Below are positions 31,057 to 31,882 of a stretch of 64,000 nucleotides of DNA, piece by piece (the stretch's first letter is position 1; each line of letters opens with the position of its first letter). The position numbers and the translations under genes were made by a program. Below the pieces are notes generated by a model. That model was not told the DNA's origin, searched no databases, and saw only the letters and a list, made by a program, of their open reading frames with translations. The DNA comes from Escherichia coli. GTDB taxonomy: Bacteria; Pseudomonadota; Gammaproteobacteria; Enterobacterales; Enterobacteriaceae. The DNA is taken from the NCBI RefSeq assembly GCF_003018235.1, contig NZ_CP027437.1. One strand, given 5' to 3'.

Positions 31057-31422
31057 TTAACAATATTTAACTTCATATTTCCCTATAATATCGAACACAT
31101 GGTCATAAGTACTGATAATTATGTGCTGAACTCCATCTCTTTGGATATCCTCTACTAAATCGAAACTTGATTTAGTATATTGTTCAAAAGGATAATCATC
31201 AACTTTGTATATAGATAACTTTTCAATTTTGCTAATAAAAAACTCGAGACTAATATCATAAGCATCTTTAATAGCAGGTTTGCAGGCAGACAACGATAAG
31301 GAAGCTTTGATGGTAAAGTTAAATGGATACAGATTTAACTCTGTCCCAGTTAAAATCAACGCATCTCGACCATATATTTGACCATATTTTGTTTCTAGTG
31401 CTTTTACAATCATATTAGCCAC
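31057..31422 (-). CDS. Putative immunity protein paired with the orphan Rhs C-terminal toxin
   Basis: 121-aa AT-rich ORF whose start (GTG 31422 or ATG 31413) abuts or overlaps the stop of the upstream orphan toxin frame, the usual toxin/immunity arrangement. No recognisable family. Confidence 0.55.
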   Translation of the reverse strand: MANMIVKALETKYGQIYGRDALILTGTELNLYPFNFTIKASLSLSACKPAIKDAYDISLEFFISKIEKLSIYKVDDYPFEQYTKSSFDLVEDIQRDGVQHIIISTYDHVFDIIGKYEVKYC

Positions 31423-31882
31423 AACCTCTTGTCCTCACTGTTCTGCCGCCATTTTGAGTTGAAAATCTTCGATCTAAATTAATTTTTGACAATTCCTCTG
31501 GAGTAGCCCATCTCGAAGGAATCTTCGATACACCGGCTGCTTTGGCAGCATAAAGTCGTCTGTTATCTAAAGTAAAGACTGAATCTTTATGAGCACCTTG
31601 TGATAACAATCTCTCTTGAACATTTACAGGTAAATCCCGCATTCTAACTTTTCTAATAGGTTCAACGTGATTTATATATGACGGGTCATTTATAAGTCTG
31701 TGAATAAGTCCATTAACATTTCTTCCGTCTTCAAAAACACCATTCATACTATCTTGTGAGAATAGAATTGTTTTAGGACTTACTGGTGATAATCCAAGAG
31801 GATCTATCCATGATAACGGGTTTGGAACATAACTATAGAGGTTTAATCCCCCCTCCAGCCCTATCGGGTCAGGATGCGCAAT
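31415..31882 (-). pseudogene. Orphan Rhs C-terminal toxin module (start-less fragment retaining only the DPxGL end of the Rhs core)
   Basis: Minus-strand frame reads …[27 protein letters not shown] followed by a ~125-aa unique domain (…MNGVFEDGRNVNGLIHRLIND…TLDNRRLYAAKAAGVSKIP…). The frame opens after a stop at 31883-31885 with no in-frame start until M at 31747. Confidence 0.7.

Follow-up and report, generated by a model that had tools for sequence, protein, structure and literature searches.

What is a second toxin tip doing downstream of a full-length rhs gene when it has neither a core nor a start codon of its own, and could the cell still use it? We addressed this question in a stretch of 64,000 nucleotides of Escherichia coli DNA (assembly GCF_003018235.1, contig NZ_CP027437.1; "the window" means this whole stretch). 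It carries a main rhs gene ending in its own toxin tip (tip Y) and followed by the corresponding immunity gene, and further downstream an orphan cassette made of a second tip (tip X) and a small gene that we call immX; all of these genes are on the minus strand. We favour, with a probability of about 0.8, the reading that tip X is an Rhs tip that has been displaced, relies on transcription from elsewhere and is not translated, and that it is kept at the far end of the rhsC locus along with its cognate immunity gene, which is intact. The toxin part would then most likely be silent, and the immunity gene the part that was retained. The cassette is composed as follows (ORF, open reading frame; Srx, sulfiredoxin; L001, L010 and L011 are sequence records used for comparison, L001 carrying a live copy of tip X).

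31882 to 31415, minus strand: orphan open frame, beginning with ATT at 31882 after a TAG (31885..31883) and ending with TAA (31417..31415).
31871 to 31965, minus strand: relic leader, the decayed last ~95 nt of an Rhs core, recognised by an in-register alignment with the core.
31790 to 31870, minus strand: retained core end, 27 codons from DPIGL to DPLGL, 78/81 identical to the live-tip gene in L001.
31415 to 31789, minus strand: orphan toxin tip X, 124 codons plus TAA, with the motif LDNRR at residues 74-78; predicted ParB/Srx fold, Tox-ParBL1-like.
31745 to 31747, minus strand: ATG specific to this lineage, due to I42M (numbering from the D of DPIGL) and the start of a 110-codon ORF; Ile in L001, L010 and L011.
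31057 to 31413, minus strand: immX, the putative cognate immunity gene, an intact ORF of 118 codons and a stop codon; same coding length and start in L001.
31021 to 31050, minus strand: intrinsic-terminator-like hairpin that closes the module, the sole one on this strand in 30900..32600.
31007 to 31870, minus strand: mobile module of 864 nt, 97% identical to E. coli genes with a live tip.

The open frame encodes IAHP, then the 27 last codons of the Rhs core and then the 124-residue tip. We found no ATG, GTG or TTG in frame between the TAG at 31885..31883 and DPLGL. The first canonical start in the frame is the ATG at 31747..31745, 15 codons inside the tip, and the only internal starts on offer for tip X are the non-canonical CTG of DPIGL and this derived ATG. 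That the frame belongs to a longer intact gene was considered and is ruled out by the stops and the missing start. The tip's stop and the start of immX are separated by a single base (TAA-T-ATG, with the ATG at 31413..31411). A first-pass annotation of this DNA had described the region as an orphan Rhs-CT/immunity cassette, preceded by only about 27 core codons, devoid of an in-frame start near the junction and followed by its own small ORF abutting the stop, and this description of the anatomy was borne out. The ORF opened by the ATG at 31747 starts without the first 14 residues of the toxin domain and ends 1 nt before the ATG of immX; gene callers annotate it as a 110-aa protein in five of the records compared (L007-L009, L014 and L015). 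This ATG might restore translational coupling to immX, with a product devoid of the conserved N-terminal motif. As is usual for Rhs tips, G+C content drops from core to tip (0.62 in the main core and 0.42 in the main tip), and it is 0.37 in tip X and 0.31 in immX. On the minus strand, the hairpin at 31021..31050 is the only terminator-like site between the stop of the main rhs gene and an insertion sequence (IS) remnant downstream, and a weak GAGG lies 11 nt upstream of the immX ATG. An Rfam scan of 29900..33200 returned nothing near threshold.

The same tip and the same immunity gene end an intact 1,558-aa Rhs elsewhere in the species. In a survey of 5,426 complete E. coli genomes, the 864-nt module (31870 to 31007) was present at 97% identity, as a single copy, in each of 85. 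In ~35 of these, at the ansP…pptA (rhsE) locus, it forms the 3' end of the intact Rhs gene, which comes after vgrG and a gene for a DcrB-like (Eag) chaperone and is followed by the same 118-aa gene and then by symE; in ~48 others it is an orphan that has been cut by ISAs1 five codons before the DPLGL end. One module is therefore seen in three natural states, as a live tip, as an IS-truncated orphan and, in the window, as an orphan behind a leader. The window copy differs from live copies at 24 positions over 864 nt, with six synonymous and four non-synonymous differences in the tip region and five synonymous and four non-synonymous ones in immX, whose product is identical to that of L001 at 114/118 residues. 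The cassette thus combines the features of an orphan module: a position downstream of a main rhs gene and its immunity gene, a core end without a start, an immunity ORF of its own, and a live copy elsewhere.

How the orphan relates to the resident core was examined by aligning the junction with the DPxGL region of the main gene, and homology between the two does exist. In agreement with the first-pass claim that similarity is confined to the DPIGL segment, it begins exactly at GACCCGATAGGGCTGG, where orphan positions 31870..31855 equal main-gene positions 32958..32943. These 16 exact bases are also the longest exact match between the whole cassette and the main gene. The best local alignment comprises 35/43 identities (pairwise E = 2e-6), 56/81 (69%) are identical across DPIGL..DPLGL, and only 28/80 are identical in the 80 nt upstream of DPIGL. 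Position 31870 is where homology begins both to the live genes and to the resident main gene. Since the live gene of L001 and the window's main core are identical over the 60 nt that precede DPIGL, tip X is carried live by the same core family. By comparison, the orphan STM0292 of Salmonella Typhimurium LT2, which was re-armed in culture, shares 522 bp at 95% identity with its main gene (Koskiniemi et al. 2014, PMC3967940). Long, near-identical core homology of that kind is absent from the tip X junction; it is a trait of a re-armable subclass and not of orphans generally. What is left is too little homology for easy re-arming. On this evidence, re-arming with the resident core looks hard and much less plausible than the LT2 precedent would suggest, and tip X can be rejoined to that core only through the 16-nt microhomology or by exchange with other strains. 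A crossover that re-armed tip X would in addition delete the main immunity gene.

The sequence immediately upstream of DPIGL added to the earlier description. The ~95 nt of the leader are not an unrelated spacer; they are a strongly decayed relic of the core, interrupted by two in-frame stops (TGA at 31909..31907 and TAG at 31885..31883) and identical to the window's own core at only 31/94 positions. Leaders were compared between the window (31871-31965, minus strand) and records L004 (10560-10655), L020 (186-280, minus strand) and L019 (1585-1678). The window leader resembles those of other orphans more closely, namely E. coli AR_0077 (58/94), Kosakonia sp. S29 (59/94) and Mangrovibacter plantisponsor (51/94), and in all four leaders both in-frame stops are at identical positions. 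The AR_0077 and Kosakonia leaders are identical to each other at 87/94 positions; overall, the relics share 51-87/94 among themselves and 31-40/94 with real core. The toxin domains behind the three other leaders are unrelated to tip X. An AR_0077-type leader was found in 3 of the 5,426 complete E. coli genomes, and a distant-mode search with the leader alone gave no match at that database size. From these comparisons we infer that this dead leader represents an ancient junction disseminated by horizontal transfer, and that crossovers within the conserved short stretch at DPIGL brought different tips into place after it. A three-base patch at codon 6, which differs between the window and the live gene, may be the mark of such a crossover. 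If so, a stop-containing leader shared across genera may mark a class of orphan cassettes that exchange tips via ~16-20 nt of DPIGL microhomology.

The order of main immunity gene, orphan, 118-aa gene and ybgA recurs at the same locus, at 99.3-99.97% identity, in several draft assemblies. In a complete genome (L010; CP177202.1, 1-12429), the block as a whole is an orphan in its own right, sitting behind a main Rhs with an EndoU tip; it runs from 1,439 nt of core through tip Y with its immunity gene and the leader to tip X with its immunity gene. This genome contains three orphans, each of which starts at the same core position (window 34341), carries 1,439 nt of core at 97-99% identity and is followed by an oppositely oriented symE. 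Tip Y in L010 therefore has the long stretch of homology that classically permits re-arming, and the arrangement of the window would result from a crossover at this place. Tip X, in contrast to tip Y, is a second-order orphan in both the window genome and L010. Its copy in L010 (6565-7020) carries R78L in the otherwise invariant N-R-R motif, a possibly inactivating change and a hint that orphan copies are not kept active as toxins.

The immX ORF was intact in every copy examined, whether beside a live tip, behind the ISAs1-truncated orphan or behind the leader-type orphan. Its product has 54 homologues, from Enterobacterales and one Vibrio, all annotated as hypothetical, and matches no Pfam or NCBIfam model. 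In other Enterobacterales, immX homologues are kept as stand-alone genes, including in immunity-only islands. In Pectobacterium parmentieri (record L018, 5126-6393), a 59%-identical immX homologue lies with two small genes between a GGDEF gene and polB, and no toxin fragment was found near the homologue in that island.

The arrangement led the first-pass annotation to suggest that tip X could be re-armed by recombination, that is, that exchange between the main rhs gene and the orphan would yield sub-populations carrying a core-tip X fusion, as in LT2. The arrangement indeed matches the LT2 description, a crossover within the 16 shared bases would by construction keep the frame, the core family is known to carry tip X live, and the adjacent tip Y orphan of L010, with its long core, offers a route to the order seen in the window. 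For tip X itself the homology argues the other way. Efficient RecA-dependent exchange in E. coli is said to require ~23-27 bp, a figure that reportedly goes back to Shen and Huang in 1986; the 16 exact nt fall below this and, at 69% over 81 nt, far below the homology of the LT2 orphan. None of the 85 module-bearing complete genomes has the module fused at the rhsC locus behind a window-type leader, and a core-tip X recombinant would pay for its new tip with the main immunity gene. We thus retain the arrangement and consider a reserve weapon of the LT2 kind unlikely. A more remote idea is that the cassette acts inside the producer, like a toxin-antitoxin module, from a promoter just upstream of DPxGL and an internal start. 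In Salmonella rhs orphans, Starsta et al. (2020) placed a promoter, P2, within the 108 bp ending at DPIGL, and reported a toxic product from a CTG start and non-toxic shorter ATG ORFs. The relic leader sits at the position of P2 and, as read from the alignments, keeps ATGACG-17 nt-TATATA at -35/-10, and the I42M ORF ends next to the immX ATG. The leader is, however, only 30/93 identical to P2 outside DPIGL, compared with 60/93 for the main gene, and a promoter scan found no site in it, with a total count equal to that of shuffled sequences and hence no promoter-like excess; we therefore rejected an active P2-type promoter. Furthermore, no canonical start precedes the toxin domain, and the 110-aa ORF lacks residues 1-14 and hence the S/T11-Q12-x-S14 motif, while the shorter ATG ORFs of Salmonella were non-toxic. 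Altogether, we regard expression of this kind as very improbable.

It could also be argued that an old displacement left tip X and immX behind as neutral remains, decaying and functionless. The leader is decayed and carries stops, the L010 copy has lost an invariant arginine and, downstream, a broken ISAs1 stands in place of symE; besides, with only 24 differences from live copies over the module, intactness alone is no proof of selection. Such a fossil would nevertheless not explain why the immX ORF is intact in all copies examined and why stand-alone homologues are retained in other Enterobacterales, and a selective agent is present, since strains that fire toxin X exist in the species (~35/5,426 complete genomes). 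We therefore doubt this explanation about as much as that of a re-armable reserve. The silent tip with a retained immunity gene fits these observations better, and it has its own difficulties. Read-through into immX and its translation are deduced from the lack of an intervening terminator and the weak GAGG. The tip ORF is still fully intact in the window lineage, which leaves some room for selection on the toxin part or for a recent displacement. Finally, tips have evidently been swapped behind one relic leader across genera, so that DPIGL recombination does seem to happen on an evolutionary time scale, and the leader comparison suggests that a crossover within the 16 exact bases is possible over such times.

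What tip X would do if it were made was approached through its family. Sequence searches of Pfam, NCBIfam and the PDB gave no match; Pfam remained negative at E <= 10 for tip X and for 36 relatives, and PDB sequence and profile searches returned only spurious alphaRep repeats and one match at E = 1.3. We found 22 close homologues, many of them orphan fragments and including proteins of Pectobacterium, and an exhaustive profile search extended the family to 709 cluster representatives. In most of the 140 matches examined, the domain ends 0-2 residues from the C-terminus, and its N-terminal partners are RHS repeats, PT-HINT, CdiA-type DUF637/PT-VENN and SpvB/TcdB; some members are named "filamentous hemagglutinin". 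An AlphaFold2 model built on a 36-sequence alignment reached a pLDDT of 96.5 and a pTM of 0.89, and an earlier, weaker model had retrieved the identical set of top nine proteins in another order. The proteins close to it are nucleotide-binding proteins of the ParB/Srx fold (ParB/Spo0J, KorB, PadC, sulfiredoxin, SerK, SbnI and Atu1540). Within the alignment, N76, R77, R78 and G115 are conserved in 36/36 sequences, S/T11 in 35/36, and D75 and Q12 in 34/36; S/T11 and Q12 belong to the N-terminal motif S/T11-Q12-x-S14. In hhalign, the segment DNRRLYAAKAAG (DNRR) of tip X aligned on GERRFRAAKLAG (GERR) of Spo0J and on GCHRYAAY (GCHR) of sulfiredoxin; these two alignments serve as supporting evidence only.

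From the model and the motifs, we assign tip X to the ParB/sulfiredoxin fold and, by the published definition of fold and motif, to the Tox-ParBL1 type. A classical ParB domain or Tox-ParB, with a DGHHR or GERRxRA box, was rejected, as there is no Pfam ParBc match and the box reads LDNRRLYAA. The faint resemblance to a ParB-like nuclease box that had been noted earlier is thus upheld at the level of fold and motif, whereas "nuclease" is an unproven assumption and DNase a conventional guess. All characterised structural neighbours bind a nucleoside triphosphate (NTP): ParB, KorB and PadC bind CTP, and sulfiredoxin, SerK and SbnI are ATP phosphotransferases. Because every one of them binds CTP or uses ATP, we also entertain, tentatively and as something we would not bet on, that Tox-ParBL1-type tips such as X are not DNases but NTP-dependent enzymes, either CTP/ATP hydrolases or kinases/phosphotransferases acting on a cellular target. 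If this were true, tip X and immX would be the first tractable example of a new chemistry among type VI secretion system (T6SS) toxins.

Put together, the favoured course of events would run as follows. Where other E. coli carry the 124-residue tip on a core, autoproteolysis after DPLGL would free it and a T6SS would deliver it. The invariant Asn-Arg-Arg loop is predicted to sit at the position of the GERR/GCHR nucleotide-phosphate-binding loop, and because it occupies that position, tip X would most likely poison cells by acting on a nucleotide or nucleic acid, with phosphoryl-transfer or phosphodiester chemistry. In the window genome tip X presumably cannot be made, because the leader before it is decayed and contains stops, and because a start codon, a PAAR and a core are all missing. 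Transcripts of the main rhs operon would read through immX to the single terminator, immX would be translated from its own ATG, and ImmX would shield the cell from E. coli firing toxin X, with tip X remaining as a genetic reserve.

The surroundings place the cassette in a known locus and comprise three further features.

32509 to 37188, minus strand: main full-length rhs gene, 1,559 aa, with a prePAAR-type N-terminus, YD-repeat core, DPIGL…DPLGL and its own 123-aa tip Y.
32007 to 32435, minus strand: immunity gene of the main tip, an ORF of 142 aa; the exact protein occurs beside the 118-aa gene in many assemblies.
30149 to 30856, minus strand: frameshifted ISAs1 (H-repeat) transposase remnant downstream of the module, identified from its ORFs and by comparison with L001, L004 and L010.

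The rhs region is flanked by kdpA on one side and ybgA-phr-dtpD on the other; ybfA was deduced from a 68-aa ORF whose position and size match the annotated ybfA of L004 and K-12. Given these flanking genes and a housekeeping identity to E. coli of up to 99.2%, we identify the locus as E. coli rhsC. The ISAs1 remnant replaces the symE gene that elsewhere comes after the module, of which ~12-18 nt of the 3' end are left (30950-31007). Tip Y (32509-32877, 123 aa) contains the motifs …DMSHKTDAVTWWN…YYLDHYSLNR… and a proline-rich tail. Neither tip Y nor its 142-aa immunity protein matched Pfam or NCBIfam, and tip Y, its immunity gene and the leader together gave no megablast match among the 5,426 complete E. 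coli genomes, although tip Y and its immunity gene are present in many draft assemblies. Upstream of the main gene, all that is left of a gene for a DcrB-like (Eag) chaperone is a C-terminal remnant of 66 codons (37207-37407, minus strand), and no vgrG was found in the region inspected (37408-38190); the prePAAR-type main Rhs is therefore without delivery partners in cis. In another record (L011; GCA_017767305.1, 1-8533), the ansP side of rhsE is joined, via an internally deleted rhs, to the ybgA-phr side of rhsC, which looks like a chromosomal rearrangement between two rhs elements.

These results matter in several respects. Killing and resistance among E. coli strains are shaped by orphan Rhs tips and the immunity genes that accompany them, and the 16 exact bases found here indicate that not every orphan can realistically be re-armed by its neighbour. 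Tip X and immX also offer a small, well-modelled toxin/immunity pair from a family predicted in 2012; in the literature searched, we found no experimentally characterised ParB-like T6SS/Rhs toxin and no paper on the tip X family. The chemistry of tip X would bear on whether "ParB-like nuclease" toxins are nucleases at all.

Two kinds of known system are available for comparison, one for the toxin domain and one for the orphan arrangement. In Pectobacterium, the Prhs2 tips carry a ParB motif, are mostly orphans in P. parmentieri and are annotated as DNase, an annotation made by domain name only (bioRxiv 10.1101/2025.05.08.652813); the Prhs2 tips may belong to the same family as tip X. Tox-ParBL1 was defined by Zhang, Aravind et al. 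(2012, PMC3482391) as a predicted ParB fold with a conserved N-terminal [ST] and, as the counterpart of DGHHR, a [NT][RT][RT] motif that is mostly R. The same authors listed RHS, HINT and FilH as partners, NGK_2271 of Neisseria gonorrhoeae as the type, and Imm-SUKH and Imm44 as immunity partners, and they stressed how weak the case is for labelling ParB domains "nuclease". A named-homologue search toward Neisseria MafB/NGK_2271 showed no Neisseria protein among the matches listed. Unlike the published members, tip X is paired with a product that is neither Imm-SUKH nor Imm44, and no Pfam model covers its domain; like them, it has the predicted fold, N-R-R in 36/36 and S/T in 35/36 sequences, and a family found at the C-terminus of RHS, HINT and filamentous-haemagglutinin/CdiA toxins. 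With respect to the arrangement, tip X differs from the LT2 orphan in sharing only 81 nt at 69% identity, with a 16-nt exact stretch, with its main gene, and in standing behind a decayed, stop-bearing leader common to orphans of other genera. In agreement with the LT2 orphan, it lies on the same strand downstream of an rhs gene of full length and its immunity gene, keeps the DPxGL core end, has no start codon and is directly followed by its own immunity gene.

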